Source: Methanobacteriota archaeon
GTDB taxonomy: Archaea > Thermoplasmatota > Poseidoniia > Poseidoniales > Poseidoniaceae
Direction of reading: 5' to 3'
NCBI GenBank assembly: GCA_002722695.1
Contig: PBMS01000046.1
Location: forward strand, 1-63,118
DNA: 63,118 nucleotides
The notes under the pieces were generated by a model that saw only the letters and a program-made list of their open reading frames with translations, was not told the origin of the DNA and ran no database searches. This document shows, piece by piece, positions 8,222-52,247 of the stretch (position 1 is the first letter of the stretch; each line of letters starts with the position of its first letter). The position numbers and the translations under genes are program-made.

Positions 8222-9169
8222 ATGTTTGACGCTGAGGAATTCATTGCCGAGAGCATTGAATCCCTCAAAGCGACCATCGACGATGTGGCCATCATCGCAT
8301 GCTCTGGTGGTGTGGATTCCACGGTTGCTGCCGTGATCGCCAATCAAGCCGTCGGCAACCTGCTTCACTGCGTTTACGTCGACACCGGTTTCATGCGAAA
8401 AAACGAGACCGAGCAAATTGAAGCCCTCCTCGAAGAGCAAGGCATCAACCTGATCACCGTCAAAGCGGCGGACCGCTACTTTGAGGCGCTTCAAGGGGTG
8501 ACCGAGCCCGAGCATAAACGGAGGGTCATCGGTGAGTTGTTCATTCGAATTTTTGAAGACGAACAGAAAAAATGCGGTGCAAAATACCTCGTCCAAGGGA
8601 CGATTGCACCCGACTGGATTGAGTCGGGAGGCGGTGTGCGAGACACCATCAAATCGCATCACAACGTGGGCGGTCTCCCCGAGGACATGACCCTTCAAGT
8701 TGTGGAGCCTCTGCGAGAACTCTACAAGGACGAGGTTCGTGAGTTGGCTCGAAACCTGGACATCAACGTCGCCGAGCGACAACCGTTCCCCGGCCCCGGG
8801 CTTGCGGTACGAACCCTGGGCGAATTGACGCCCGACCGCGTGGCCGTCGTTCGCGAGGCCTGCGCCATCGTCGAAGAGGAGTTTGAGGCGGCTGCAGAGC
8901 GGGGCGAGATGGACCTTCCTTGGCAATACTTCGCAGCCTTGCTTCCGGTTCGAAGTGTGGGCGTCCACGGCGATGTTCGCGCTTACGGCGAAACCATCGT
9001 CGTTCGGGCCGTGCAATCCATGGACGGCATGTCAGCACGCTATTCCGAGATTCCCCACAAAATTCTCCAAACCATCAGCACGCGCATCACCAACACGGTG
9101 AAGGGTGCTGCCAACCGGGTGGTGTACGACATCACGCACAAACCACCCGGCACCATCGAATGGGAGTGA
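8222..9169 (+). CDS. guaAB: GMP synthase subunit B (ATP pyrophosphatase domain, archaeal split type)
   Basis: MFDAEEFIAESIESLK...ACSGGVDSTVAAV (SGGVDS PP-loop)...KSHHNVGGLPE...PFPGPGLAVR...YDITHKPPGTIEWE. No glutamine amidotransferase domain is attached, which fits the split archaeal enzyme. The ATG lies 1 nt after the purE stop. Confidence 0.9.
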   Translation: MFDAEEFIAESIESLKATIDDVAIIACSGGVDSTVAAVIANQAVGNLLHCVYVDTGFMRKNETEQIEALLEEQGINLITVKAADRYFEALQGVTEPEHKRRVIGELFIRIFEDEQKKCGAKYLVQGTIAPDWIESGGGVRDTIKSHHNVGGLPEDMTLQVVEPLRELYKDEVRELARNLDINVAERQPFPGPGLAVRTLGELTPDRVAVVREACAIVEEEFEAAAERGEMDLPWQYFAALLPVRSVGVHGDVRAYGETIVVRAVQSMDGMSARYSEIPHKILQTISTRITNTVKGAANRVVYDITHKPPGTIEWE

Positions 9170-13870: not shown

Positions 13871-16800
13871 TCAATGTTGCTCTGTTCGTGTGTGTTGAGC
13901 GACCTGTTCCTGATAGTAGGTGACCAGCTGGTCCATCGTCCATCCTTGAGCGAGGTACTGCTCGACCATTTCTGCCGTCCAGCCCGGCACCTTGGCCAGC
14001 ATTTCTGGTGTGGCGCCCGAAACGCTCGCATTCAAGACCGGCTGCTGCCAACCTTGGTTGTCAACCGTTCCACCGCTCACTTCGGCAAACGCAGCTTCGC
14101 TGATGGCGTCCTTCACGTTTTCGGATTCGGTGCGCATGCCGCGAAGAATGACGTAGGCTCCGGCCGAGAGCACCAGCGCCAAGATCATCAGAATCAGGAA
14201 GAACGACTCAGCAGAATCGCCCGCACTGCTTTCTGTGCTGTCGCCAACGAGTGCTGCGCGTTGTTCGGAGGAACATCCTTCCGCATCTGTGGCCACGCCA
14301 ACGGGCGTGTCGGGGCACTGGTCGGCTCCGTTGAGAATGCCGTCGTCGTCGAGATCGGTGTCCACCACGATCGTACCGGTTCCGCCGGTGTCGTCCACGG
14401 GTTGAATGTCCACACCAGCAAGGTCACAACCAAGCACCTCGCTGTCGTTGGTCCCGTCGAGGTCGGCATCCCACTGCGTGAGTGCGGCGAGCGGTTCAAC
14501 ATCGTCCATGCTGGAGTTAAGGGCGGTTGCTAGGGCCCATGCGACCTCAAGGTCGTCGGTGATGCAATCCCCGTCCGTGTCGGCGTTGTTGGGGTCGCCA
14601 CCGTGAAGTTGTTCGGCGAAATTGCTCAACCCGTCTTGGTCGCTGTCCATCATCGATTCGTCCATGAGAGCATCGCCCACCACGCTTCGTTGGGTTCGGT
14701 TGAGCCCGTGGGCAACCTCCCACGCATCGGTGAGTCTGTCCTGGTCGGTGTCGGTGGCGTTGTCCAATCGATGCCAGTCTTCGTACCATGAATTCATGTA
14801 AACGCCTGCAATCGCTTCGCTGGAGAGCACAAGCCCCATCTCTCGGTTGCGAACAAGCGCAGAGTCGCCCCAATTGATGGAGGACACGAGAACGTGTTCA
14901 CCGTCAACGATGACGCCTTTGTTGTGCAGTTTCGTGACGACTTCATCGCTGCTCATGACGATGGCCGCCGTGTCGTAGCCGAGGGTGTGGTTCCATTCCT
15001 CATTGAAGCGGTCGACCACGCTCTGAATGTCCTCGTCAAGGTAAGCGCCGTTCAAAATAAGCCGCAACCGAACGTTGCGCTGCGCCGCTTTCTCGAGCGA
15101 TTCAAGAATGGGGTTTTCCCCCCATCCCCACGACCAGTCCATGTCAAGGTACTGAAGTGAGAGTAAAATTTCCTCGTCGGCGCTGTCCAAAACAGCCACC
15201 AGATCATCGATGCAGTTGTCCGGGCACACGAGCAGTTGTGCGTCCACGTCGCCTTGGATGCTCGCAGCCGTCTCGCCAACGATGGCGGACGCCGATGGCA
15301 TCGTCCAGCCGGTAGGAGCATCGGTGGCCACGACCGGTGTGATGTGCTCGCGGGCTTGATTTTCATCGAAGGCAAGATGAGCAGCCACCATGGTGGCCAG
15401 GCCCGCATCGTCCACGATGACGCCCCAGTCCCGATTCCCAGCTTCACCGGGCATCGGATGGGACGAAGATTTCCAATTGCCTGAACCGACCCAAACGCTG
15501 GCGTTGTCCTTGACCGCAACTTTGCTGTGGATGTACGCATAGGGGTTCTCGCCCGTGTCGCCAAACCAACTCACCTGTGCACCGGACGCAAGGAGTTCGG
15601 TGGCCATGCCACGCTGCGTGTCGAGGTCGTATTGATTCCACCAGCTGTCGCCGTAATCCAGCACGACGGTCACCTCGACGCCTCGGTTTTGTGCATCGAT
15701 CATGGCTTGAACGAGGTGAACCTCGTGAAGCAGGTACATGTGAACGTGGAGGGAACTCGAAGCGTCGTTGATCCATGCCAGCAGGTCCGTTAGCCCGTGT
15801 TCAGGTCCCAGAAGCGGGGTCACCGATGCTGTCGTGCTGATGCTTGTGTCAATGCAGAACGTGCTGCCGCCCAAACGACTCCACTGCTCGTGCCAGTCGG
15901 CCACCGTGTCGGTGTCGGGCGTGTCTCCGCAGCCGCTTCCACGGAGGTAAATCAAATTGTCAAGGTTGGCCAGAGGTTCGGCCAAGGCGATGCCGTTCCA
16001 CCCGGGAACGGACACGGGCCCGTTGCCGTAGACGATGGTGTCGACCTCAGCACCCGACCCGTCCAACAGTTGTAGGGCAGCACCAGAATTGGGGAAGTAG
16101 AAATTCCGGTCAAGTGCCCCGTCGGCGTCGACCACGTTTCCGTCTTCGTACACCCTGACGGCGTCTGCATCGTTGGCGAGAAGCACGCTTGAGCCCGGTT
16201 GAATCATCAGGTTGCTGACGGTGGCGTTGTAGGAGCTGAGCGAACCGGTTGTGGTGCGCATCGTCCAACCGTTGAGCACCGCCAGTTTCTCGCCTTGGTT
16301 GCTGATTTCGATGAACTCCATGTCGCTGGAGATGTCCGTTGAGGCCGACGGCATGAAGCGTGTAAATCGCAAGTCGTCCTTGGTGGCGAAGTCCGCCGGG
16401 TTGGGTTCGGCTTGACCGGGTGTTGGCCAGAGTGCATGTTGCCAATCATCGCTGTCTTGCTCCCCCGGCATGAGCGTCTGGCAGTCCGTGATGACCGTCC
16501 AAGAGGCGCCGTCCACAGAACCTCCATCCGGGTGGAGAAGATCAAAAGCGTCGCCAAGTCCCGTGAGAATGTACTCGTCCATGGTGAACACGGCGCGTTC
16601 GTCGGGGTTCAGCAGAACCTTGGCGGTGTGATTGCCCTCGGTCCAGAGGCTGTCGAGGCGCATGAAGCGTCGTTCACCCTCGGCGTTGATCACCGACCAC
16701 CGACTGATGTTGAGAGGCGTGGCACCGGTGTTGTGAACTTCGACCCAGTCCTCGGTGGGTTGGATGGAGTCGTCGTTGCAGTACGGGAGGACTTCGGTGA

Positions 16801-18757
16801 TGGCAAGGTCGGTGGAACCGGTGTAGGGTGCCCAAACAGGGTTCACTTCCCCTGGGGTTACCCACGCTGACAAAATCCAATTTCCGGTGGCGTTGGCGGC
16901 GTCGGGTCCAACGCCGGCGTGCGTGCTGTTGGGGGCGACGAGGGATTCGCCTTCGACGGTGTCGGACCACGAAACGGTGTCAACGGCGGCTCCGTTGATG
17001 TCGACCAGTCCGATGGAATCCGATGAGGTGTGTTTGAGGTAGAAACTGCTTGTACCGTTCAACGCGATGAGCACGGCTTCTCCGCCTTTGACGACGGTTG
17101 TGTCCTGCAACGGCATGTTGAACTCGTGCAGGGTCAGCGAGCGTGAAGCCGCTTGAAGTTTCCAACCCGCAACATCAACGTCCATCGTTCCGTAGTTGTA
17201 AAGCTCTATCCATTCACCCATCGGCCACATTTGGCTGTCGGAGCCGACGGCGTCTGGAAGCAGCTCAGAGAAACGGACGGTTGTGGCCGAAGGCATGCTT
17301 CCCGGTTCGGGCTGCCCGGGCGTCTTCCACGCAGCAGGGGTCCAAGAATCGGCTGGGTCGCTTCCTCGAATCAGCGCCATGTCCTCTCCGTAGTCGGTGG
17401 TGTAGTCGGCGGTGTCCACGACAGTTCCCGTCATGTCTCTTAGGAAGACGTGGTTGTAATTGTCCCAAAGTTGTGTAAAACTCGTAAACTGGACCAATCG
17501 TCGACCGTCGGGGTCGATGAAGGTCGCCCCTTGCGTGGTGTTGAACACGAGGGTGCCCGGGTCGATGTGGGTGATGTTGCCCAGCCCGTCCATGATGCTC
17601 CACCCCATCAGGTCGATTGAGTTGGTGCCAGTGTTGTGAATTTCGACCCATTCGCCGTCCGGGAATGCAGCACCGTCGTTGGTGGCGTTCGGGAGGATTT
17701 CCGTAATATGGACGTCTCCAACCTGTCGTGCCATCAGTTCCATCGGCAACGGGTTCATGGCTTCGGGGGTCGGGTAAGGTGCGTTGACCCAGGGTGTGTT
17801 TGGCTGACCTGCGTCCATCAGCGCAAAGCCTTGAACGGTTGACGTCCACGAAATCTCCTGGGACTTGCTGCCGTTGGGCCATTTCAGCGTGATGCTTTCG
17901 ACGCCGTTGTTGAGCAACCCGTAGCCTGTGGTTGAATTGACGGCGACGATCCGATGCTGGCCGGGGCTGATGAACATGCTCTGAGATGCGTTAACGAGGT
18001 GTGCGCTGTTGAACGGGAATGCATGACCAGCGGCGTCCTCAATGCTGTAACCCGTCAAGTCGATGTCCGATGTTCCCGTGTTCAGGATTTCAATCCATTC
18101 ACCGCCAGGCCACGATTCATTGTCGTCGCCGGGCCACGAATTGGCCATCACTTCGGTCATGATGATGTCACCCGGGATGAGGTTGTTCGAAACCGTCGCC
18201 GTGTTGACTTGACCCGGTGTCGGGTTGTTGGTTTGAACCCAGTTTGCGGTGGCGCTGCTTGGGTCTTGCTGGTAGCTCTTGCCGGATGTTACGCTTCCCC
18301 ACGTGGCCTGGTGGAGGTTGTTGTTGTTGCTGTCCACGAGGGTCATGGACATCCCGGTGTTGGTCATGTAAAAGCCGGAAAGTCCGTTTCGAGCGATAAC
18401 GACGTACTCCCCAGCGCTGATGGTCCATGTTGAGGCGTTGCCACTCTGGTAGCCGACGATGGTGGTTGAATTGAAATCCAAGCTTTGCGATGCGCTGTTC
18501 GTGACCTTCCATCCCGTCAGGTCCACGTCAAGGGTTCCGCTGTTGTACAGCTCCAACCATTCGCCACCGGGGTAGGTGGCGTCGTCGTACCCGTTCGGAT
18601 TTGGTATCACTTCATTGATGCAAATGGAGCCGGTGCACGCCGTTGACCGACCCGCCGTGTTGACACTCGCTTCAGAGGGCAGCGTGGTCAACAACGGGGA
18701 GGTCAGCGAAAGCAAAAACAAAACGATGAGGCTGGAGGCGGTTAGGGTCTTTTTCAT
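13871..18757 (-). CDS. membrane-anchored surface protein: signal peptide + 6 lamin-tail domains + double-HKD phospholipase D/nuclease module + TSP3-like Ca-binding repeats + TM + cytoplasmic tail
   Basis: Signal peptide MKKTLTASSLIVLFLLSL. There are six LTD cores: GGEWLELYN, GGEWIEILN, DGEWVEIHN, MGEWIELYN, TEDWVEVHN and DMEFIEISN, each followed by a ...L.GW.. segment. The HKD motifs are YIHSKVAVKDNASVWVGSGNW (nt about 15470-15529) and LHNKGVIVDGEHVLVSSINW (nt about 14860-14926). D-rich repeats include DTDQDRLTDAWE, DSDQDGLSNFAE and DTDGDCITDD. The TM helix is FFLILMILALVLSAGAYVIL. The start was trimmed from GTG 18766 to ATG 18757. Confidence 0.9.
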   Translation of the reverse strand: MKKTLTASSLIVLFLLSLTSPLLTTLPSEASVNTAGRSTACTGSICINEVIPNPNGYDDATYPGGEWLELYNSGTLDVDLTGWKVTNSASQSLDFNSTTIVGYQSGNASTWTISAGEYVVIARNGLSGFYMTNTGMSMTLVDSNNNNLHQATWGSVTSGKSYQQDPSSATANWVQTNNPTPGQVNTATVSNNLIPGDIIMTEVMANSWPGDDNESWPGGEWIEILNTGTSDIDLTGYSIEDAAGHAFPFNSAHLVNASQSMFISPGQHRIVAVNSTTGYGLLNNGVESITLKWPNGSKSQEISWTSTVQGFALMDAGQPNTPWVNAPYPTPEAMNPLPMELMARQVGDVHITEILPNATNDGAAFPDGEWVEIHNTGTNSIDLMGWSIMDGLGNITHIDPGTLVFNTTQGATFIDPDGRRLVQFTSFTQLWDNYNHVFLRDMTGTVVDTADYTTDYGEDMALIRGSDPADSWTPAAWKTPGQPEPGSMPSATTVRFSELLPDAVGSDSQMWPMGEWIELYNYGTMDVDVAGWKLQAASRSLTLHEFNMPLQDTTVVKGGEAVLIALNGTSSFYLKHTSSDSIGLVDINGAAVDTVSWSDTVEGESLVAPNSTHAGVGPDAANATGNWILSAWVTPGEVNPVWAPYTGSTDLAITEVLPYCNDDSIQPTEDWVEVHNTGATPLNISRWSVINAEGERRFMRLDSLWTEGNHTAKVLLNPDERAVFTMDEYILTGLGDAFDLLHPDGGSVDGASWTVITDCQTLMPGEQDSDDWQHALWPTPGQAEPNPADFATKDDLRFTRFMPSASTDISSDMEFIEISNQGEKLAVLNGWTMRTTTGSLSSYNATVSNLMIQPGSSVLLANDADAVRVYEDGNVVDADGALDRNFYFPNSGAALQLLDGSGAEVDTIVYGNGPVSVPGWNGIALAEPLANLDNLIYLRGSGCGDTPDTDTVADWHEQWSRLGGSTFCIDTSISTTASVTPLLGPEHGLTDLLAWINDASSSLHVHMYLLHEVHLVQAMIDAQNRGVEVTVVLDYGDSWWNQYDLDTQRGMATELLASGAQVSWFGDTGENPYAYIHSKVAVKDNASVWVGSGNWKSSSHPMPGEAGNRDWGVIVDDAGLATMVAAHLAFDENQAREHITPVVATDAPTGWTMPSASAIVGETAASIQGDVDAQLLVCPDNCIDDLVAVLDSADEEILLSLQYLDMDWSWGWGENPILESLEKAAQRNVRLRLILNGAYLDEDIQSVVDRFNEEWNHTLGYDTAAIVMSSDEVVTKLHNKGVIVDGEHVLVSSINWGDSALVRNREMGLVLSSEAIAGVYMNSWYEDWHRLDNATDTDQDRLTDAWEVAHGLNRTQRSVVGDALMDESMMDSDQDGLSNFAEQLHGGDPNNADTDGDCITDDLEVAWALATALNSSMDDVEPLAALTQWDADLDGTNDSEVLGCDLAGVDIQPVDDTGGTGTIVVDTDLDDDGILNGADQCPDTPVGVATDAEGCSSEQRAALVGDSTESSAGDSAESFFLILMILALVLSAGAYVILRGMRTESENVKDAISEAAFAEVSGGTVDNQGWQQPVLNASVSGATPEMLAKVPGWTAEMVEQYLAQGWTMDQLVTYYQEQVAQHTRTEQH
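14762..15830 (-). other. duplicated PLD-family (HxK(x)4D) catalytic module
   Basis: There are two HKD motifs in one chain. HKD1 has H at 15527-15529, K at 15521-15523 and D at 15506-15508. HKD2 has H at 14924-14926, K at 14918-14920 and D at 14903-14905. Each is followed by the GS.N / SS.N segment typical of the PLD superfamily. Confidence 0.8.
15990..18628 (-). repeat. array of six lamin-tail-domain (LTD) modules (protein-level tandem repeat, about 140 aa period)
   Basis: A recurrent pattern of [IV]x[IF][TN]E[VIL]xP..........P.GEW[ILV]E[ILV].N.G....[DN][ILV].GW is seen six times. Confidence 0.8.
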
Positions 18758-18775
18758 GAGGTTCACGTCCGATGT

Positions 18776-44936: not shown

Positions 44937-44943
44937 GAGGTGG
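44937..44943 (+). promoter_or_regulatory. Shine-Dalgarno GAGGTGG for the STAND regulator
   Basis: It lies 5 nt upstream of the ATG at 44949 and only 10 nt after the stop of the preceding giant gene, which implies co-transcription. Confidence 0.55.
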
Positions 44944-44948
44944 ACTGC

Positions 44949-47474
44949 ATGGCCGTTCAGGCGAAACCCGGTGTTCAGGAGCGTATTCTGCTCCACTTGT
45001 TGGACTATTCCGACTTCAAAGACAGCATCGAGGTGCCCTTTGCCCTGTCCCAGATGGGCATCGCAAACGCCGTGGCCATCGCTCGTTCCAACGTACCTCG
45101 GGCCATTGCGGGATTGAAAGATCAAGGCATTTTGGTCGAGCGGCAAGCCCACGTGAAGGGTGTTTCGAGGAAGCGGAAAGCCTACTTTTTGACCGACAGC
45201 GGGGTATCGCTGGCTGGCGAGACCTGGGAGCGACTCTCTGAGTTCCCTGTTCGATGCATCTTGGACGACCAACCTGCGATCTCCACCACCCTTGGCGGCG
45301 CCAAATCCGTGCTGCCCTTTGAGATGCGTCCTGTTGATGTCATCCGCTACATCGACGAACACAACTGTTTGGACGTACGGAATCTCTCCGCTGATTTGGT
45401 TGAACGAGACTTGTCAAAGCACGTTGAGAAGCAACTGGTAACGGCTCTTGCCGATCTTCCTCGATTGCGTCATTTTTACGGTCGTGCCACCGAACTGGAC
45501 AACATGGTGAATTTGTTGGAGGCTCGCGCAACCACGCTTCTTGTTCCCGGCATTGCGGGTATCGGAAAAACCACGGTCGCTTCGAAGCTGATCGAGCGGT
45601 TCATGCACCGTCGAAATCTCCTGTACCACCGATGCCAAGATTGGGAAGGTTCTCGCTCCTTTTTTGAGTCGGTGGCCGATTGGCTTTCGAGCATGGGCAA
45701 CTCTGATTTTTCGACTTACCTCGCCGCAACACCCGTGCCTCAACCTGCGGACGCTGCAGGGTTGCTGGTGGAAGCTCTCGAAGGAACGCCCGCTCTTTTG
45801 GTCATTGACGACTTTCACAAAGTCTCGGACACGGTGCTGCACCAAACGTTCCAGGCCATGTCACTTGCCCTTTTGGGAAGCGAGGAGAAAATCGGTTTGG
45901 TGATCTTCTCTCGCTCGTTCAAACCCGTGGTCCCCACCAAAGACGCCGAAGGGAGGATTGCGAGCCTCGTTCTCCCTCTCGACGGTCTGGACCCTGAATC
46001 TGGGCGCAAACTTCTGACGAGTTTTGATTCACTTGAAGACGAGCAATGGCTTCACATCCACGGCTTGTCCCGAGGCCACCCGCTGGTACTGGAACTCATC
46101 AATCGAGGCGCTTCGGCCGGGGCCTTCCACGAAACGCTTGAGAATTACGTGACGGTTGAAATCTTTTCAAAACTCAGCGCAGAGCAAAAGCGCGTCCTGT
46201 CCGCACTGTCCATTTTCCGTGAACCCGTTGCCCTTGAAGCGCTGGCCCAGCAAGGACTCAACACCGACGAACTCGATGGACTTGTGGAATCGGGTCTTGC
46301 TCGACAAGCGGATTCCGAAACGTACGATGTTCACGACTTGATTCGAGAATTTCTTCTCAGGAGTCTGTCGAGTGCACTGCGAGAAGAGTTCCACGCCAAG
46401 TGCGTGGATTGGTATCGAAAACAAACCGCGTCCCAAGACGTGGTCATCGAGCTCATTTACCACACCATCAAATCAGGAAAATACGAAGATGCATCGGCGC
46501 TGGTGGTCAAGGAAGGACGCCAACTGGTGTCGCAGGGCCACATGGAGTTGCTCGGTCTGATTGAGCAAATTCAAACCGGTGAGTTGAACGCCGGGGTGGT
46601 CGTCCGTCTCGCTCAACTGCAAGGCGACATGCTTGCTCTTCTGGGTCGACTCGACGAAGCCGAGACGGTGCTGAGCAACAGTCATGATCGAGCCAAGACA
46701 TCCACCGATGAATTGGTCCAAGCTGAAATTCTTTCATCCATGGCTGACGTCAGCCGAAAGCAAGGCAACAGCGACCTCTCCCTTAGCCGACACAAAATGG
46801 CTCTTCAGCATTACATCTCACTCGGTGATGCTCGTTGGGCGGCCCGAACTTACAACAACATTGGGTACCTTTTACGCCGGAAGAACGAGCGAACCAAGGC
46901 TCTGGAAGCCTACGGCGAGGTTGAGGCGATTTTGGAAAGTTCCGATGATGTGGACCTCATCAACAGCCAGATTACGCTGGCCAGGTCCCTGATCGATCTG
47001 GGTGAAGTTGATCGCGCTCGTGAACACGCCATGGCATCGCACGAACGAACCTCCGCCCTCGGCGATTCAATTCTTCACGCTCGAGCCCAAGCCGTTTTGG
47101 GTCGATATTATTCAAAAGTGGAGCAATCTGAACTCGCTTTGTTCCACTACACGGAAGCCCTTGAGGCAATGACCGAGGCCGGCGACGTTCAGGCCTTGGT
47201 TGAAATCACCATGCTGCTTGGCGAGGTGCTTCACGATGCTGGCCGCACCGATGAGGCTGTGGAACACTACGGTCAAGCGCTCGTTTTGGCCGAGGCCAAC
47301 GACCTGCGGATGCAAATCGGTGAACTCCTGACTCGTTTGGGCGGTGTAGCACCGGACCGCCAAGGCCGAATGGAGTATCTCCAGCGGGCTCTGACGGTGT
47401 TCAGAGAGTTGGGTGCCAAGAATCGCATGCGTGAAGTGCAGGTGCTGGTCCACAGGGCCGTCATGAGCCGATGA
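44949..47474 (+). CDS. wHTH - STAND/Arch_ATPase-type NTPase - TPR signal-transduction regulator
   Basis: The N-terminal winged-helix pattern is ERILLHLLDY...LSQMGIANAVAIARSNVPRAIAGLKDQGILVER. The F.GR..EL lead-in is HFYGRATELDNMVNLL. Walker A is PGIAGIGKTT (45549-45575) and Walker B is ALLVIDDFH. The C-terminal 350 aa or so carries TPR-like repeats (ARTYNNIGYLLRRKNERTKALEAY..., ALFHYTEALEAM...). Confidence 0.82.
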   Translation: MAVQAKPGVQERILLHLLDYSDFKDSIEVPFALSQMGIANAVAIARSNVPRAIAGLKDQGILVERQAHVKGVSRKRKAYFLTDSGVSLAGETWERLSEFPVRCILDDQPAISTTLGGAKSVLPFEMRPVDVIRYIDEHNCLDVRNLSADLVERDLSKHVEKQLVTALADLPRLRHFYGRATELDNMVNLLEARATTLLVPGIAGIGKTTVASKLIERFMHRRNLLYHRCQDWEGSRSFFESVADWLSSMGNSDFSTYLAATPVPQPADAAGLLVEALEGTPALLVIDDFHKVSDTVLHQTFQAMSLALLGSEEKIGLVIFSRSFKPVVPTKDAEGRIASLVLPLDGLDPESGRKLLTSFDSLEDEQWLHIHGLSRGHPLVLELINRGASAGAFHETLENYVTVEIFSKLSAEQKRVLSALSIFREPVALEALAQQGLNTDELDGLVESGLARQADSETYDVHDLIREFLLRSLSSALREEFHAKCVDWYRKQTASQDVVIELIYHTIKSGKYEDASALVVKEGRQLVSQGHMELLGLIEQIQTGELNAGVVVRLAQLQGDMLALLGRLDEAETVLSNSHDRAKTSTDELVQAEILSSMADVSRKQGNSDLSLSRHKMALQHYISLGDARWAARTYNNIGYLLRRKNERTKALEAYGEVEAILESSDDVDLINSQITLARSLIDLGEVDRAREHAMASHERTSALGDSILHARAQAVLGRYYSKVEQSELALFHYTEALEAMTEAGDVQALVEITMLLGEVLHDAGRTDEAVEHYGQALVLAEANDLRMQIGELLTRLGGVAPDRQGRMEYLQRALTVFRELGAKNRMREVQVLVHRAVMSR

Positions 47475-47475
47475 G

Positions 47476-47955
47476 TCATTGCACGGCTTGTGGCCTGTCA
47501 AGGGATAAGAACGTCAATCCGTTGTCGTGAACCACCCAAATCCGGTCAACGCCTGCGAGGGGCACACGCCCTTCGTGGCTGGATGAGCCCGTCCCGCTCA
47601 GTGAGATTTCGGTGTCGAGTGGACCTCCCTCGTCGATGAGAATCAGGGCTGTATCGTGCAGTTCAAGCCAAAACAGAGACTCATCGGCTTCGGATGGCCG
47701 CCAAGCAATTTCCTCAGCATACGACACGTTTCCACCCAGTCGGCTTGCTTCATCCGCCCGCTCAACCGCCGCCGCAATGTCGTCCATGTTGGCTTGAATG
47801 GCTTCCTCGTTCCATCGCAGGCGTGTGTTGGTCTCGATGTCCCAAGCCCAGATGCTGAACATGCTCATCAAAAGGACGCCGAGTAAGAACGTGAAGATGT
47901 AACCGAGTTCGGTCGCTGCGGCACCGACGTCGCGGTTCAACCTTGTTCGCTTCAT
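47476..47955 (-). CDS. class III signal-peptide protein, TadE/Flp-like pseudopilin N-terminus
   Basis: MKRTRLNRDVG|AAATELGYIFTFLLGVLLMSMF has a basic leader, a Gly, then a hydrophobic helix with Glu at +5 and Tyr at +8. Its ATG overlaps the upstream stop (ATGA at 47952-47955). Confidence 0.65.
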   Translation of the reverse strand: MKRTRLNRDVGAAATELGYIFTFLLGVLLMSMFSIWAWDIETNTRLRWNEEAIQANMDDIAAAVERADEASRLGGNVSYAEEIAWRPSEADESLFWLELHDTALILIDEGGPLDTEISLSGTGSSSHEGRVPLAGVDRIWVVHDNGLTFLSLDRPQAVQ

Positions 47956-50186
47956 GCCAACACCTCTCGTGTCGTGACGTCCAAGGACGCCAGTTGAAGC
48001 GTGAATTCAATGACCTCACCGTTGGTGTGCCACACGGCTTCGGCCGTACCGTAGCTTGGATCGGGTACCCATCCAACGTAGTCCGTCAACAAATCAAGGC
48101 GTCCGGGGTAAACGGTCCAGTCTTCACTTGCCTCAAGCCCGACGCCTGCATAGTCTGCGACCGCCGTTCCGTAGGGTTCAGACCAACCGCGTCGCACTTC
48201 ATGGGCGGGGGTTGAAGCCAGTGAGGTGCGGTGCACCATCTCAATGTCCAATTCCAATTCACCCGCCCCGCTTTCACTGGATGCGGTTGGGTGGAGTGAA
48301 GGTATGGTCGCCGCAAATCGTGGACCAGGTCCACCTCGGTCGGAAGGAGGGACCACAACGTAGGGCACGAACTCGGGGTGATTGGTGACCACTGCACCTC
48401 CCGTGAACGCCACCTCCATGCCGTCAACGGACGATGAGAACTGGTACGATAGCCTGGAGAGGTGGAAGGCCCAAACCGTTCCGATGGAGCGGTGGGTGCT
48501 GACACCGTCGCTTCCCAGCACGTCGATGCTAACGCTTGCTGGGTGCCGTCCTTCCGTCCACGCGTTTCGAGTGTCAATTTCACCTCGGCCGCCCATCACC
48601 TCCCACGGTAGGTCGGTGGTGATCCATCCGCTGGCTTGGGTGCCCACGCTCGTGCAACGTTCTGCCCCATCGTGAGGAAGGTGGAGCAAACCGACGTCTC
48701 CTCCGAGCCGAAGGGCTCGCAACGGATGTCCTGAATCCACGCTGAGGGTGTTGTTGCCTTCTGCGAGAACGAGGCGCTCGTGGTCGTCGTTCTCCAGAAA
48801 AACACCGCTTTCTTGGTAGCCACCGGTGAGGTTCCATGCAGACGTGTAGCCAGCGAGTCGTGCAATCAAGCTCTCTTCAGTGGTGTTGTCAAGATTGGCG
48901 TAGGTGAAGCCTCCACCGGACAGCGCGCCGGTGTCGTCGGCCGGCAGGAACGTCATGCCTGCAACTGCGTCGGTGGTCGCGGCGCTTGTCGTGGCGGCCC
49001 ACGTCACGAAGACGTCCCCGTCTGCATCCAGCGCCAAGGCTCCTTCGTCATGGACAGGCGGCCAGTTGAGATGCTCAACACCGCCTGCAGCGACGGAGAT
49101 GCCACCACCTCTCCACGTCAACGTCACAACCTCGTCGCCGGGGTTCGTCATTCGCAGGGTGCCGTTCAGGTTGGGTGGCACGAACTCATGACCCAAATAC
49201 GCCCCGTTGGTCGACGGCCAAGCCGTCAGTCCGAAGTCGTGGCTGAGGTTGGTTTTGAGCAGGAGCCTGGACGGTGAACTTGTGGTGATGTGGGCTACGG
49301 TCTCTTCAACGACCGAGACCTGATGCGAGAACGAGACTGCGGTTCGAGCCAAGCCGCTGGGTGTTGCGTAGTGGATTCCAGTTTGGTCGTTGACGGTGAT
49401 GTGAATTTGATTGGCTGCGCTGCTGAGAAGGTGGAGCGTGGACTGGCCGGCTGGAAGTGGTACCGACCACGCATGACCCCGCTTGTCCGAGGGTTCGGGT
49501 GAGTTGGGCAGGACGTACGTGGCGCCGCCCTGTCCCACCAGAGCAAACACGTTGAGCTCGTGGGATGAGGAGAGCGTTGCTTCCCCGATGGCTGTGAGGT
49601 CGATGCTGGTGGTCTCGTCGACCCTGAGCGAGGTGGAGAGACGCTCCTCTCCGTCCTCGCTCAAAATCACATCAATGGGTCCCAGCGGCATGGCCAAGCC
49701 GGGCGTTACGGTGATGCTGACTCGGTCGATGACGCCCTCAAGTGTGTAGTGGTAGGGTCGGTCGGGACCCAAGCGCAAGTCGCTCAAGCAGACCGCTTCG
49801 ATGAAACTCTCGGGATGGCGAATTTCCACTTGGTCGTCGAAATCAAGAGCACCTCGCGCTCGAAGCGTCATGTCTTCCACCCAGGTCGCTGAGTACCACA
49901 TGCCACCACGCAAACTGTCCCACACCAATTCGCCGTCCACGGGTATGAGGGTGGCCTGCGCTGAATCACCGGGCATGCCACGCTCGCTTAACGCAGCGGT
50001 CTCGTGGGCGAGGAGTTTCATTTGAGACGACATATCGTGGCGCTCAACCGACCCTTCCATCTCCTCGATGACGGGCATCATCGACACCATCATGAGTCCG
50101 ATGATGGAGAGAACACCTCCGAACAACAACACGGTGGCGACGGCGGCTGAAACGCCGTCCTCGTCTCGGCGAAGCGCCCCCCTCAT
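47952..50186 (-). CDS. large (744 aa) class III signal-peptide (type IV pilin-like) protein
   Basis: MRGALRRDEDG|VSAAVATVLLFGGVLSIIGLMMV N-terminus followed by about 700 aa of beta-rich sequence with no other TM. It shares ATGA overlaps with both neighbours. Confidence 0.72.
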   Translation of the reverse strand: MRGALRRDEDGVSAAVATVLLFGGVLSIIGLMMVSMMPVIEEMEGSVERHDMSSQMKLLAHETAALSERGMPGDSAQATLIPVDGELVWDSLRGGMWYSATWVEDMTLRARGALDFDDQVEIRHPESFIEAVCLSDLRLGPDRPYHYTLEGVIDRVSITVTPGLAMPLGPIDVILSEDGEERLSTSLRVDETTSIDLTAIGEATLSSSHELNVFALVGQGGATYVLPNSPEPSDKRGHAWSVPLPAGQSTLHLLSSAANQIHITVNDQTGIHYATPSGLARTAVSFSHQVSVVEETVAHITTSSPSRLLLKTNLSHDFGLTAWPSTNGAYLGHEFVPPNLNGTLRMTNPGDEVVTLTWRGGGISVAAGGVEHLNWPPVHDEGALALDADGDVFVTWAATTSAATTDAVAGMTFLPADDTGALSGGGFTYANLDNTTEESLIARLAGYTSAWNLTGGYQESGVFLENDDHERLVLAEGNNTLSVDSGHPLRALRLGGDVGLLHLPHDGAERCTSVGTQASGWITTDLPWEVMGGRGEIDTRNAWTEGRHPASVSIDVLGSDGVSTHRSIGTVWAFHLSRLSYQFSSSVDGMEVAFTGGAVVTNHPEFVPYVVVPPSDRGGPGPRFAATIPSLHPTASSESGAGELELDIEMVHRTSLASTPAHEVRRGWSEPYGTAVADYAGVGLEASEDWTVYPGRLDLLTDYVGWVPDPSYGTAEAVWHTNGEVIEFTLQLASLDVTTREVLA

Positions 50187-51268
50187 CGGCTGACCTCCAC
50201 GCGCTGGATGTCGACCTCGAAGTAGAGGGGAAGTTGTTGCGAAGAGACACTGAACCCGTCGGCTCCGCTCGCCCGTTCATAAGGCGCAAAGCCGATGTAC
50301 GTGTCCAACGTTCCGGCGGATCGCTCGATGGTGTAGTCGGCCAGCCAGTTGTTGTGGTACTGAGGTGTGATGACGTCGTGAAGAGCGTTCTGGACGTTGA
50401 AGTTCACGTTGTAGGCTTGCCCAGAAAACAGGGTGAGCGGTCCTTGAGACACAAATTGCATGCCCACGTTGGACCCGGACCCGATGCTTCCGTTCGAGAC
50501 GATGTCCGTGAGCAGCATGGACAGGCGAAGTTCGTCGTTGGCCATCCGGTCAAATTCCACCAGCGGCATGGCACTTACTTCCCAAGCACCGTTGGGGAAG
50601 CGCTCCGCTCGAGCGTTGTTCATCAACACGATTTGGTGTTCACCCTGGCCCAACGACGTGGTGATTTGAAGCCCTGAGAGGGTCCAAGTCACGTGTTGAT
50701 GCAGGGGTTGTCCATCAGCATCGTAAACGGTGACAATCATCCAGTGTGCGGCGCTTGCGTTGTGGGTGATGAACACTTCCAGGTGGCTGGCAGGCACTGT
50801 TTTTTCAACGGTCACCCCGGGTGACTCGACACGTATGCTGCGTGCGGTTTCGTTGGCAGCGAGAACACCAACAACCGTGTCGTTGACGTGGCGTAGGTCA
50901 ATGCTCTCTCGGTCCGTTAGGTCAGCGCTGATGGTCCAGTGTTCAACGTTTTGCACAGAGCGTATGGCGGTGGACTGAATGGCAAGTGTGTTTCGAAAGC
51001 CCGTACCCTCAGGAGCGTTTCCAGCAACCTCAAGCCGATCTTCGATCCGATCGGCCAGGCCGGTGGCGGAGTTCCAGTTGGTGTTGTCTTCAAAATCGGA
51101 AAGATACGGGTTCAGGAACACCCACACGCCGCCCATGATGGTGATGACCATGGCCAAGAGCATGACCACGCCCAACACTTCGCTGACGGCGCGTTCATCG
51201 TCGGGTCGACGAAGGACGGTCTGTCGGACGGTGCGTCGGTTCACAAGGTGAACACAACCCCGTATCAT
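50183..51268 (-). CDS. archaeal type IV pilin-like protein (class III signal peptide)
   Basis: RRPDDERA|VSEVLGVVMLLAMVITIMGGV closely matches the archaeal pilin N-terminal domain pattern (D.RAVS.V[IL]GV.LM.A[IM]). An AGGTGA SD lies 8 nt upstream. Confidence 0.8.
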   Translation of the reverse strand: MIRGCVHLVNRRTVRQTVLRRPDDERAVSEVLGVVMLLAMVITIMGGVWVFLNPYLSDFEDNTNWNSATGLADRIEDRLEVAGNAPEGTGFRNTLAIQSTAIRSVQNVEHWTISADLTDRESIDLRHVNDTVVGVLAANETARSIRVESPGVTVEKTVPASHLEVFITHNASAAHWMIVTVYDADGQPLHQHVTWTLSGLQITTSLGQGEHQIVLMNNARAERFPNGAWEVSAMPLVEFDRMANDELRLSMLLTDIVSNGSIGSGSNVGMQFVSQGPLTLFSGQAYNVNFNVQNALHDVITPQYHNNWLADYTIERSAGTLDTYIGFAPYERASGADGFSVSSQQLPLYFEVDIQRVEVSR

Positions 51269-51276
51269 TTAGGCAT

Positions 51277-51282
51277 TCACCT
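51277..51282 (-). promoter_or_regulatory. Shine-Dalgarno AGGTGA for the first pilin-like gene
   Basis: The plus strand reads TCACCT and the minus strand AGGTGA, 8 nt upstream of the ATG at 51268. It lies within the 32-nt gap after the MBL gene. Confidence 0.5.
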
Positions 51283-51300
51283 TGAACGGTCGGAAACCGC

Positions 51301-52113
51301 TCATTTGAGCGGCTTGTTGGGCGCCGTGGTTTCGGTGGCTTCTTGCCCGATGTAGTGCGAAAAGTCTGGCCCGTTTTGTGCGGAAATCCTCAGGTCGCCC
51401 GTGAAGATCTCGTCGATGTAATAGAGAACGGTGGACTCTGCGATGTGAGGGGCGTTGTTCTTCTCACTCAAGTGCGTAAGCGTGATGCTACGGGTTTGTT
51501 CGGTGCACACTTCGGCGAGGAATTCCCCGGTCTGTTGATTTGAGAGGTGGCCACCTCGTCCTGAAATGCGGTCCTTAAGTGAATACGGATAGGGTCCATG
51601 CATCAGCTTGTTGTGGTCGTAATTGGATTCGATGGAGATGTGCTCGCATCCTCTGACGTGGGCGATGAGTTCGTCGGTCCAAGAGCCCAAGTCGGTGATG
51701 ATGGCAGCACGCTCACCGCCATGGCTCGCCACGAACGCCACGTTGTCGGAGCCAGCGTGAGGAACGGGTACGGGAAGAACGGCAAGGTCCTCGCCAACAC
51801 GGACCAAGTCCAGCGCCTCAAAATGGGTCGTGAGTTCGGGCACGAGGTCCAGTTCGAGAGCCGTTCGCTCGTTGGCGAGAACGGGAATGTTCCACTTGGT
51901 TTGAACGAGTTTCGCACCGCCGCCGTGATCGCCGTGGTGGTGGGTGATGAACACGCAGTCTATGTCCTCCGGCGTAAGCTGCAGTCGGGCCAGTCGCTTA
52001 GCGAGTTGGGTCCCGCTGAACCCCTGATCGATGAGGACTTTTGCACGAGGGGTTTCAAGCAAGGTCGAGTTCCCTCGACTGCCCGTTCCCAAATGCGTGA
52101 TGGTCATCGTCAT
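51301..52113 (-). CDS. MBL-fold metallo-hydrolase (YycJ/WalJ-like)
   Basis: ITHLGTGSRGNSTLLE....VLIDQG, the Zn motif ITHHHGDHGGG, VPHAGSDNVAF, SNYDHNKLMHGPYPYSLKDRISGRGGHLSN. No signal peptide or TM is present. The start was trimmed from TTG 52170 to ATG 52113. Confidence 0.85.
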   Translation of the reverse strand: MTMTITHLGTGSRGNSTLLETPRAKVLIDQGFSGTQLAKRLARLQLTPEDIDCVFITHHHGDHGGGAKLVQTKWNIPVLANERTALELDLVPELTTHFEALDLVRVGEDLAVLPVPVPHAGSDNVAFVASHGGERAAIITDLGSWTDELIAHVRGCEHISIESNYDHNKLMHGPYPYSLKDRISGRGGHLSNQQTGEFLAEVCTEQTRSITLTHLSEKNNAPHIAESTVLYYIDEIFTGDLRISAQNGPDFSHYIGQEATETTAPNKPLK

Positions 52114-52237
52114 GCGAACATCGGTCCTTGGACGCGGGAAGGACTTGAACACACCGCCTGTGGCCTTCAAGAAGGAGCCGTTTCCGAGGGTTTGTTGGCG
52201 AACTCAACACCGATTTGTATGAACATTGTTCCATCAC

Positions 52238-52247
52238 CCTCATAAGC
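52238..52247 (+). promoter_or_regulatory. candidate TATA box (CCTCATAAGC) for the TSP3 giant gene
   Basis: This is an identical decamer to the one at nt 217-226. It lies about 58 nt upstream of the ATG at 52302, which itself has a GGTGAG SD. Confidence 0.3.

Follow-up and report, generated by a model that had tools for sequence, protein, structure and literature searches.

Three pilin-like surface-protein genes in a predicted operon conserved across Poseidoniales (Marine Group II archaea)

Introduction

In Haloferax mediterranei, pHM500 carries in a row the genes coding for PilB (T2SSE and PilB3_C domains), PilC (T2SSF) and proteins of the families DUF7287, DUF7288, DUF7261, DUF7266 and DUF7289; beside this set lie genes for a Pilin_N pilin and then for a 631-aa protein with DUF7289 and DUF7305 domains. 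The arrangement is probably the 'PilB4-type' euryarchaeal type IV pilus locus of Makarova et al. 2016 (PMC4858521). Here we describe a related but distinct set of pilin-like genes in a 63,118-nt stretch of DNA from an archaeon of the lineage Poseidoniales (Marine Group II, MGII), namely contig PBMS01000046.1 of assembly GCA_002722695.1, positions 1 to 63,118, called the window below. The set occupies positions 47476-52113 of the minus strand and its four genes are named here, in reading order, MBL (a metallo-beta-lactamase-fold hydrolase gene), B, C and D.

A second haloarchaeal arrangement is found on the Salinigranum marinum plasmid NZ_CP100462.1 (4869-12018 of our locus L098), where six overlapping genes, annotated as hypothetical, PKD or VWA, code for DUF7287, DUF7288, DUF7261, DUF7266+PKD+malectin, DUF7289 and DUF7289+VWA proteins. 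The large members of this cassette, DUF7266+PKD and DUF7289+VWA, are 681 and 764 aa long, and no pilus motor was found within 9 kb of it. Since the pHM500 and Salinigranum sets are built in this way, DUF7289 and DUF7266 can be regarded as families of pilus loci in which large members are normal and of which motor-less cassettes exist. Minor pilins of arCOG02911, from euryarchaeal type IV pili, are 250-550 aa long, all-beta and Ig-like, prone to duplication and FlaFind-positive, and the pilins that work with euryarchaeal ATPase/TadC modules are often trans-encoded (PMC4858521). A case from the phylum to which the Poseidoniales belong is Cuniculiplasma, where about 500 kb separate the pilin genes from the ATPase/platform operon; the CdiPA/CdiPB pair of Cuniculiplasma divulgatum places a minor pilin beside a major one, the 135-aa CdiPB, the filament of which has been solved (PMC12448462). 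No paper mentioning DUF7289 was found in the literature searched.

The Marine Group II archaea, which have not been cultured, rank among the most abundant archaea of surface oceans. To our knowledge, almost everything inferred about their attachment to particles or algae comes from thrombospondin-like genes and a non-canonical 'flagellum' operon. The operon described here is not mentioned in the MGII literature that was searched.

Pilin-like N-termini of B, C and D

Examination of the N-termini suggests that B, C and D are surface proteins of type IV pilin-like character and paralogous to one another, D being the weaker paralogue in this region, and we lean towards the view that the trio forms a minor-pilin or adhesin/tip complex served in trans by machinery encoded elsewhere. 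B has a 27-aa leader and a predicted cleavage site RDERA/VSEVLG (A27/V28; the slash marks the cleavage point), followed by a hydrophobic helix (28-52) and a conserved FLNPYLSDFEDNTNW motif. In C an 11-aa leader ends at the predicted site RDEDG/VSAAVATV (G11/V12), after which the N-terminal helix begins. In D the pilin-like N-terminus RDxxA/AATELGYIFTFLLGV precedes the juxtamembrane motif WAWDIETNT..RWN, beyond which the chain is helix-prone for a stretch and ends in a short C-terminal region. The three N-termini quoted in a preliminary description of this DNA are correct as sequence; the predicted cleavage point of D was placed there after G11, but more likely lies after A12 (RDVGA/AATELGY) because of the homology register and the conservation pattern, G11 being variable.

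The predicted sites are strikingly uniform among homologues. When the 120 listed homologues of each family were inspected, 326 sequences in all had a recognisable site motif, and in 325 of them the residue at position -1 is A or G (104/104 for B, 117/117 for C and 104/105 for D). The +1 residue is invariant within each family, V in B, V in C and A in D, and a short, charged leader of the form R-[DE]-x-x-[AG] is common to all three. Copies from the second Poseidoniales family, Thalassarchaeaceae (MGIIb), keep the same pattern at -1, at +1 and in the leader. B, C and D each have a basic residue at -5, and B has R at -2 in 75% of its homologues; a basic K/R at -2 is regarded as typical of archaeal class III signal peptidase sites (PMC3387779). 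Behind the site, each protein continues with a hydrophobic helix that is about 22 residues long and with a juxtamembrane motif that is conserved, and in B and D few parts are as well conserved as the N-terminal segments. Exactly one segment resembling a transmembrane (TM) helix is found in each of the three proteins, always at the N-terminus, and none in MBL.

A crude six-frame scan of our own, FlaFind-like and following the rule as summarised in PMC3387779, returned only B and C from the whole window; the class III signal peptides proposed earlier were thus picked up for these two proteins, and D was not returned. The observation is not a product of chance, since the scan yields only B and C and the overlaps between the three genes, described below, are kept across loci.

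Relationship to haloarchaeal and other pilins

Profile searches linked B and C to families of pilus loci. DUF7289 (PF23960) is matched at E <= 0.01 by 34 of 35 B homologues (best E = 1.2e-6) and by 29 of 31 C homologues (best E = 7.3e-9), and precomputed PF23960 matches exist on many homologues; Pilin_N (PF07790) is matched at the same threshold by 30/35 B homologues. Neither C nor D matches Pilin_N or TIGR02537. Alignment with hhalign brings the B and C N-termini together in the same register (E = 3.4e-4), as it does D and B (E = 0.004), and aligns B residues 23-87 with the H. mediterranei DUF7289 protein (E = 7e-5), including the juxtamembrane P..D-x-E-D motif. The stretch DERAVSEVLGVVMLLAMV of B and DERAVSPVLGVALLIAMTV of the H. 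mediterranei Pilin_N (PilA-type) pilin are identical at 17 of 29 positions, across the cleavage site. A search of the PDB with the B profile gave as top match, aligned at this very site, the pilin PilA2 of Natrinema (8gi2), with a score that is not significant (E = 0.15). When the B N-terminus was compared by tblastn with 7.3 Gb of plasmids, only four haloarchaeal genes were recovered, three of them annotated as having a type IV pilin N-terminal domain, all at E >= 0.05. The DUF7289 and Pilin_N matches and the 17/29 identity bear out the preliminary description of the N-termini as type IV pilin-like, with D the weaker case.

Other assignments were less successful. D was considered as a member of DUF7266 (PF23928) and rejected: D of the window has no match, 4 of 30 homologues match weakly (best E = 1e-3), and hhalign to the H. 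mediterranei DUF7266 protein gives E = 0.16. No match of the trio to archaellin (PF01917) or ArlF/G models was found in Pfam or NCBIfam; 'flagellin-like' and 'FlaG/FlaF family' are labels of the Joint Genome Institute on some B homologues only.

The trio can be set beside the haloarchaeal DUF7287-DUF7289 sets, with which it shares the N-terminal module (leader, A/G site, helix, P..D-x-E-D), overlapping and coupled genes, the association of small with very large members, and, as in Salinigranum, the possible absence of a motor from the cassette. It differs from them in having three genes instead of five or six, without DUF7287, DUF7288 or DUF7261 and in another order; in matching only the first ~70 positions of DUF7289, with ectodomains that are unrelated (no PKD, VWA or DUF7305); in the acidic residue of C at -2; in being always led by MBL, which the haloarchaeal cassettes lack; and in having no motor in cis in about 100 loci. 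With the haloarchaeal PilA adhesion pilins (PF07790; Natrinema PilA2, 8gi2) B shares DERA/VS..LGV...LLAM. PilA pilins are, however, about 150 aa long, and the preliminary description was right in calling two of the proteins far larger than structural pilins (361 aa for B and 744 aa for C); B also has a long leader (27 aa) and stays below the Pilin_N threshold. By published description only, the size of B, its all-beta Ig-like ectodomain and the duplication of B and C fit arCOG02911, whereas C exceeds the size range of that family. The likeness to CdiPA/CdiPB of Cuniculiplasma lies in the phylum and in the proposed trans arrangement. The locus is a lineage-specific representative of families that are catalogued but uncharacterised, and not a new machine.

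Gene organisation and conservation

The coordinates of the genes and of the other features discussed are collected in Table 1. Stop and start codons overlap as ATGA at the B/C (50183-50186) and C/D (47952-47955) junctions, and C and D have their own SD-like (Shine-Dalgarno) motifs, GGAGGT and GAGGTG respectively, 5-6 nt upstream. The open frame of MBL, which stops at 51303-51301, extends further upstream to a TTG at 52170. Re-reading of the sequence agreed in full with the gene order, the sizes, the 32-nt gap, the AGGTGA motif and the ATGA overlaps reported before.

Table 1. Coordinates of the genes and candidate elements of the locus in the window
Feature	Position	Strand	Description
MBL	51301-52113	-	soluble MBL-fold metallo-hydrolase, 270 aa from ATG; heads the unit; Pfam Lactamase_B / Lactamase_B_2
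MBL-B spacer	51269-51300	-	32 nt; SD-like AGGTGA at 51277-51282, 8 nt before the B ATG (51268)
Gene B	50183-51268	-	361 aa, pilin-like; DUF7289 / Pilin_N matches
Gene C	47952-50186	-	744 aa, large, pilin-like; DUF7289 match
Gene D	47476-47955	-	159 aa, small, pilin-sized, pilin-like N-terminus
Convergent neighbour	44940-47474	+	winged helix-turn-helix (wHTH) + STAND (AAA_16) ATPase + TPR regulator, MalT type; Pfam and NCBIfam
Box 1	52216-52246	-	about 30 nt, CTTATGAGGGTGATGGAACAATGTTCATACA; contains palindrome GGAACAATGTTC (52221-52232)
Box 2	52133-52158	-	GGCGGTGTGTTCAAGTCCTTCCCGCG; ends 20 nt upstream of the MBL start

Database homologues clustered at 90% number 213 for B, 494 for C and 919 for D, all of them unnamed or called 'hypothetical' or 'flagellin-like'. 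Judged by the names of the homologues, the window comes from the Poseidoniales and is closest to Poseidonia/MGIIa. Relatives of C were found in 162 species in a scan of GTDB species representatives, and a HMMER search with the C profile against 1.84 billion representative proteins gave only 134 matches, about 13 of them full-length clusters at 50% identity, all belonging to one family; one of the clusters carries the name Thalassarchaeaceae. An MGIIb locus and three other divergent loci have an identical block, with identities of 28-43% for B, 33-43% for C, 41-53% for D and 49-66% for MBL. D is the most conserved of the three pilin-like proteins, and B and C evolve faster than the other genes of the block, as would be expected of exposed proteins.

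The arrangement itself is equally persistent. MBL stands directly upstream of B in every locus that extends that far, most often at a distance of 25-61 nt, and the genes overlap by 4 nt, with a valid start codon, in 75 of 75 related loci at the B/C junction and in 62 of 75 at the C/D junction. No AT-rich promoter-like box was visible on inspection of the 32-nt MBL-B spacer of the window; given this and the short gap, the genes are probably co-transcribed, and MBL-B-C-D is best described as a predicted operon conserved across the order, in both Poseidoniales families. The conservation of the hydrolase gene together with the three-gene cassette is therefore order-wide and includes MGIIb. An apparent loss of MBL in the divergent locus L104 proved to be an artefact of gene calling on the opposite strand, tblastn recovering the gene at 61% identity. 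In the same locus, from a high-GC divergent lineage, the MBL-B spacer (around 8600-9000) has grown to at least about 300 nt and repeats in tandem a motif about 30 nt long (…CCGTTCAGACCCTCGCCCC…).

The operon is embedded in a block of surface-protein genes (29519-63118 of the window) that is syntenic in every related locus (L018-L106) as far as each extends. Block members code for a 3181-aa STT3 (oligosaccharyltransferase) protein, a subtilase, a 1483-aa beta-helix protein with a C-terminal TM anchor, a STAND/TPR regulator, a 1917-aa Asp-rich protein with TSP3-like repeats and, in an open reading frame (ORF) running off the end of the window, a protein of more than 1670 aa. In all loci reaching far enough the common order, read in the direction of the operon, is a second giant gene and the TSP3-repeat giant gene, both pointing leftwards, then MBL, B, C and D pointing rightwards, and then the STAND/TPR, beta-helix, subtilase and STT3-giant genes, again pointing leftwards. 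The syntenic flanking surface-protein genes account for about 20 kb, and the whole block for about 22 kb. As evidence for a link between MBL and the pilin-like genes, such synteny is weak at the level of the family and somewhat stronger at that of the order. A contig titled 'Verrucomicrobiales bacterium isolate ARS100' (L030, NZEQ01000036.1) contains a complete Poseidoniales block, with C at 77% identity, and is likely to be a mis-binned contig or to come from a mislabelled metagenome-assembled genome.

Predicted structures of B and C

The AlphaFold2 model of B (mean predicted local distance difference test, pLDDT, of 80) has a helix at 26-52, the conserved linker, a second helix at 63-83 and then all-beta Ig/FN3-like sandwiches, a predicted layout that is pilin-like in placing N-terminal helices before Ig-like beta domains. 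That of C (pLDDT 65) has a helix at 9-35 and a confident all-beta, multi-sandwich region of about 450 residues (120-570). The following residues, approximately 576-744 (47952-48460 of the window), are among the most conserved of C and include many invariant G, P, W and R (for example DRGGPGPRFAAT); these terminal ~170 residues are modelled with pLDDT <40 and have no match in Pfam or the PDB. This region of C may be an interface whose folding requires a partner.

A Foldseek search of the two models against the PDB gave no global match (template modelling score, TM-score, at most 0.19), only Ig/FN3/lamin-tail or jelly-roll domains, those found for B being Ig/FN3 alone, and no function could be assigned to B or C by fold. 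The C and D profiles gave nothing meaningful against PDB sequences.

Possible functions of the three proteins

The preliminary description proposed a minor-pilin or tip-adhesin cassette with its machinery elsewhere, and this is the best-supported reading, by virtue of the DUF7289/Pilin_N homology and of the precedents for trans-encoded pilins. According to it, B, C and D would be inserted into the membrane and their leaders would be trimmed at the cytoplasmic face by an ArlK/PibD-type peptidase of the cell. A FlaI/FlaJ- or PilB/TadC-type motor, its genes lying elsewhere in the genome, could then gather the N-terminal helices into a bundle. What results would be a short pseudopilus, or else a minor-pilin or tip complex, on which the large beta-sandwich ectodomains of B and C are displayed and act as adhesins. 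The ratio of the three subunits would be fixed by translational coupling.

Several observations weigh against a pilus-like assembly of this kind. With Pfam gathering scores of 27 bits for DUF7289 and 25.2 for Pilin_N, and a cut-off of 20 for TIGR02537, B of the window (residues 26-81) stays below all three (26.1, 20.8 and 16.1 bits), as does C (residues 11-80) for DUF7289 at 18.1 bits. The matches cover just 60-70 of the 238 DUF7289 positions (profile positions 1-60 for B and 2-71 for C), and D has no significant family match in Pfam or by hhalign, so that the pilin families expected earlier are found for B and C, in the case of B with Pilin_N included, at scores below the gathering ones and not at all for D. 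The -2 residue of C is E or D in 79% of homologues and never K/R, while that of D is variable (R in 40%, else S, H or G). No T2SSE ATPase, T2SSF platform or A24 peptidase was detected by Pfam among about 30 ORFs, or in the 10 kb to the left of the window; neither a motor nor a peptidase was seen in about 83 kb around the locus or next to any of about 100 related loci, and the locus has no candidate for a major pilin except D itself. The synteny of the operon provides no specific link to pili, because the entire neighbourhood is syntenic. Finally, the trio also occurs in Thalassarchaeaceae/MGIIb, and most genera or MAGs of this family are reported to lack fla genes (PMC6461757, PMC6864105), a statement of the literature that concerns the family and not these trio-bearing genomes.

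The absence of machinery from the surroundings, which had been reported for the window, is borne out by Pfam and by tblastn: H. mediterranei PilB and PilC gave nothing better than E = 0.4 against the window and 97 related loci (1.85 Mb). Peptidase_A24 has no match either, and none of the window ORFs without a Pfam domain resembles a polytopic peptidase. The possibility raised earlier that a complete pilus locus sits just outside the window receives no support from the 10 kb to its left, where only housekeeping genes are found, and a motor next door is ruled out by scans of the window, these 10 kb, 80 species-representative loci and four divergent loci. To treat the missing machinery as an oddity, as the preliminary description did, was nevertheless an overstatement, given the documented archaeal pilins encoded in trans and the motor-less Salinigranum cassette; the absence of a nearby motor is ordinary for archaea. 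Moreover, flaB/H/I/J loci are reported in all MGIIa, together with extra flaI/flaJ/tadC genes (PMC6336850, PMC6461757, PMC6864105).

The alternative that survives best is that B, C and D are uncleaved or partly cleaved single-pass anchors of a motor-independent envelope complex, in which stoichiometric B-C-D organises or tethers the surrounding giant glycoproteins as a core envelope module of the Poseidoniales. ArlF and ArlG, which have pilin-like N-termini yet serve as anchors, provide a comparison. We consider such a complex unlikely on balance, although a good deal speaks for it: the unit is order-wide and present in MGIIb, many genera of which are reported to be motor-less (PMC6461757, PMC6864105); it is embedded in the fully syntenic surface block (STT3 giant, subtilase, beta-helix, STAND, TSP3 giant and second giant); C and D are without a basic -2 residue; tight translational coupling suggests an equimolar complex; neither a major pilin nor a motor is nearby; and the highly conserved C-terminus of C is not modelled when folded alone, as expected of an interface. 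However, without a peptidase site it is difficult to account for a strict A/G at -1 combined with an invariant +1 in three families; the N-terminus of B is almost canonical and very similar to those of pilins that do form filaments; homologous families sit in PilB/PilC operons; and the motor-less state of MGIIb is again known for the family and not for the genomes that carry the trio. The more specific version, in which pilin-derived helices have been co-opted as anchors and MBL is a functional partner of the module, appears more doubtful still; if true, it would mean a pilin-to-anchor exaptation in the most abundant archaea of the surface ocean.

It is improbable that the trio, processed and assembled by type IV machinery, is instead a bindosome-like capture device. 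Class III signal peptides are found on archaeal surface proteins other than pilins (PMC2910488, PMC3387779), MGII are heterotrophs feeding on polymers (PMC6336850), and by Foldseek the central region of C weakly matches proteins containing carbohydrate-binding modules (CBM), lectin or jelly-roll domains. Yet the TM-scores of these matches are at most 0.14 for C, no solute-binding-protein or CBM domain of Pfam was found in B, C or D, and the operon is without a transporter.

A DNA-uptake apparatus, with the trio as a ComG-like pseudopilus and MBL as a nuclease in place of ComEC, is very improbable: the analogy drawn in the preliminary description has in its favour solely the co-orientation and short gap of the MBL and pilin-like genes, conserved across the order. 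In ComEC the MBL domain is attached to a polytopic channel of the membrane, whereas MBL here is a soluble protein of 270 aa that lacks TM segments and competence domains and has generic matches only. Pfam scans of the window ORFs revealed nearby neither an ATPase nor a channel nor a DNA receptor like ComEA, and the haloarchaeal DUF7289 cassettes do without MBL.

The operon brings to what is known of MGII surfaces a group of pilin-like proteins that have large ectodomains, are conserved throughout the order and are candidate adhesin or tip subunits. The presence of the trio in MGIIb makes it possible to ask, by comparing genomes, whether proteins of the pilin-like kind can work in the absence of a type IV motor. 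In addition, the uncharacterised families DUF7289 and DUF7266 are tied to PilB/PilC operons and extended beyond haloarchaea.

The MBL enzyme

MBL scores well above the Pfam cut-offs for Lactamase_B (58.4 bits, cut-off 22.7) and Lactamase_B_2 (59.1 bits, cut-off 27), and its HHHGDH motif (HxHxDH), at residues 58-63, is intact and invariant in 12 orthologues, in agreement with its initial identification as an MBL-fold hydrolase. The further label 'YycJ-type' is supported by no curated model: no NCBIfam model of a named MBL subfamily comes near its cut-off, the best reaching 33 bits against 100. Against the PDB, phmmer and a profile built from 12 sequences turned up nothing but generic superfamily matches, namely beta-lactamases, Apyc1 and beta-CASP RNases, confined to the first ~90 residues. 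MBL is thus a soluble enzyme of generic type that is probably co-transcribed with B-C-D, and its conserved position at the head of the operon across the order suggests a functional tie with the trio.

Candidate regulatory sequences and neighbouring genes

Two conserved boxes (Table 1) are located in the divergent intergenic region between MBL and the giant TSP3-repeat gene. Both were found in 12 diverse loci by alignment of the upstream regions, and a recognisable copy of box 1 is present even in the very divergent locus L104. Box 1 is a candidate operator or promoter element, and box 2 a candidate promoter of the MBL-B-C-D transcript. The palindrome GGAACAATGTTC was rejected as a regulon motif, as it occurs once in the window, and a 12-mer at such a frequency is not beyond chance.

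The wHTH-STAND-TPR gene adjoins D in every locus, outside the operon, and its product is a possible regulator of the block. The two boxes could serve the divergent genes as operator and promoters, to which this adjacent regulator may bind.

Elsewhere in the window, an ORF of the minus strand (13871-18766) codes for a 1631-aa protein with six lamin-tail and two PLD-like (phospholipase D / nuclease) domains, an unusual architecture for what looks like a secreted enzyme.

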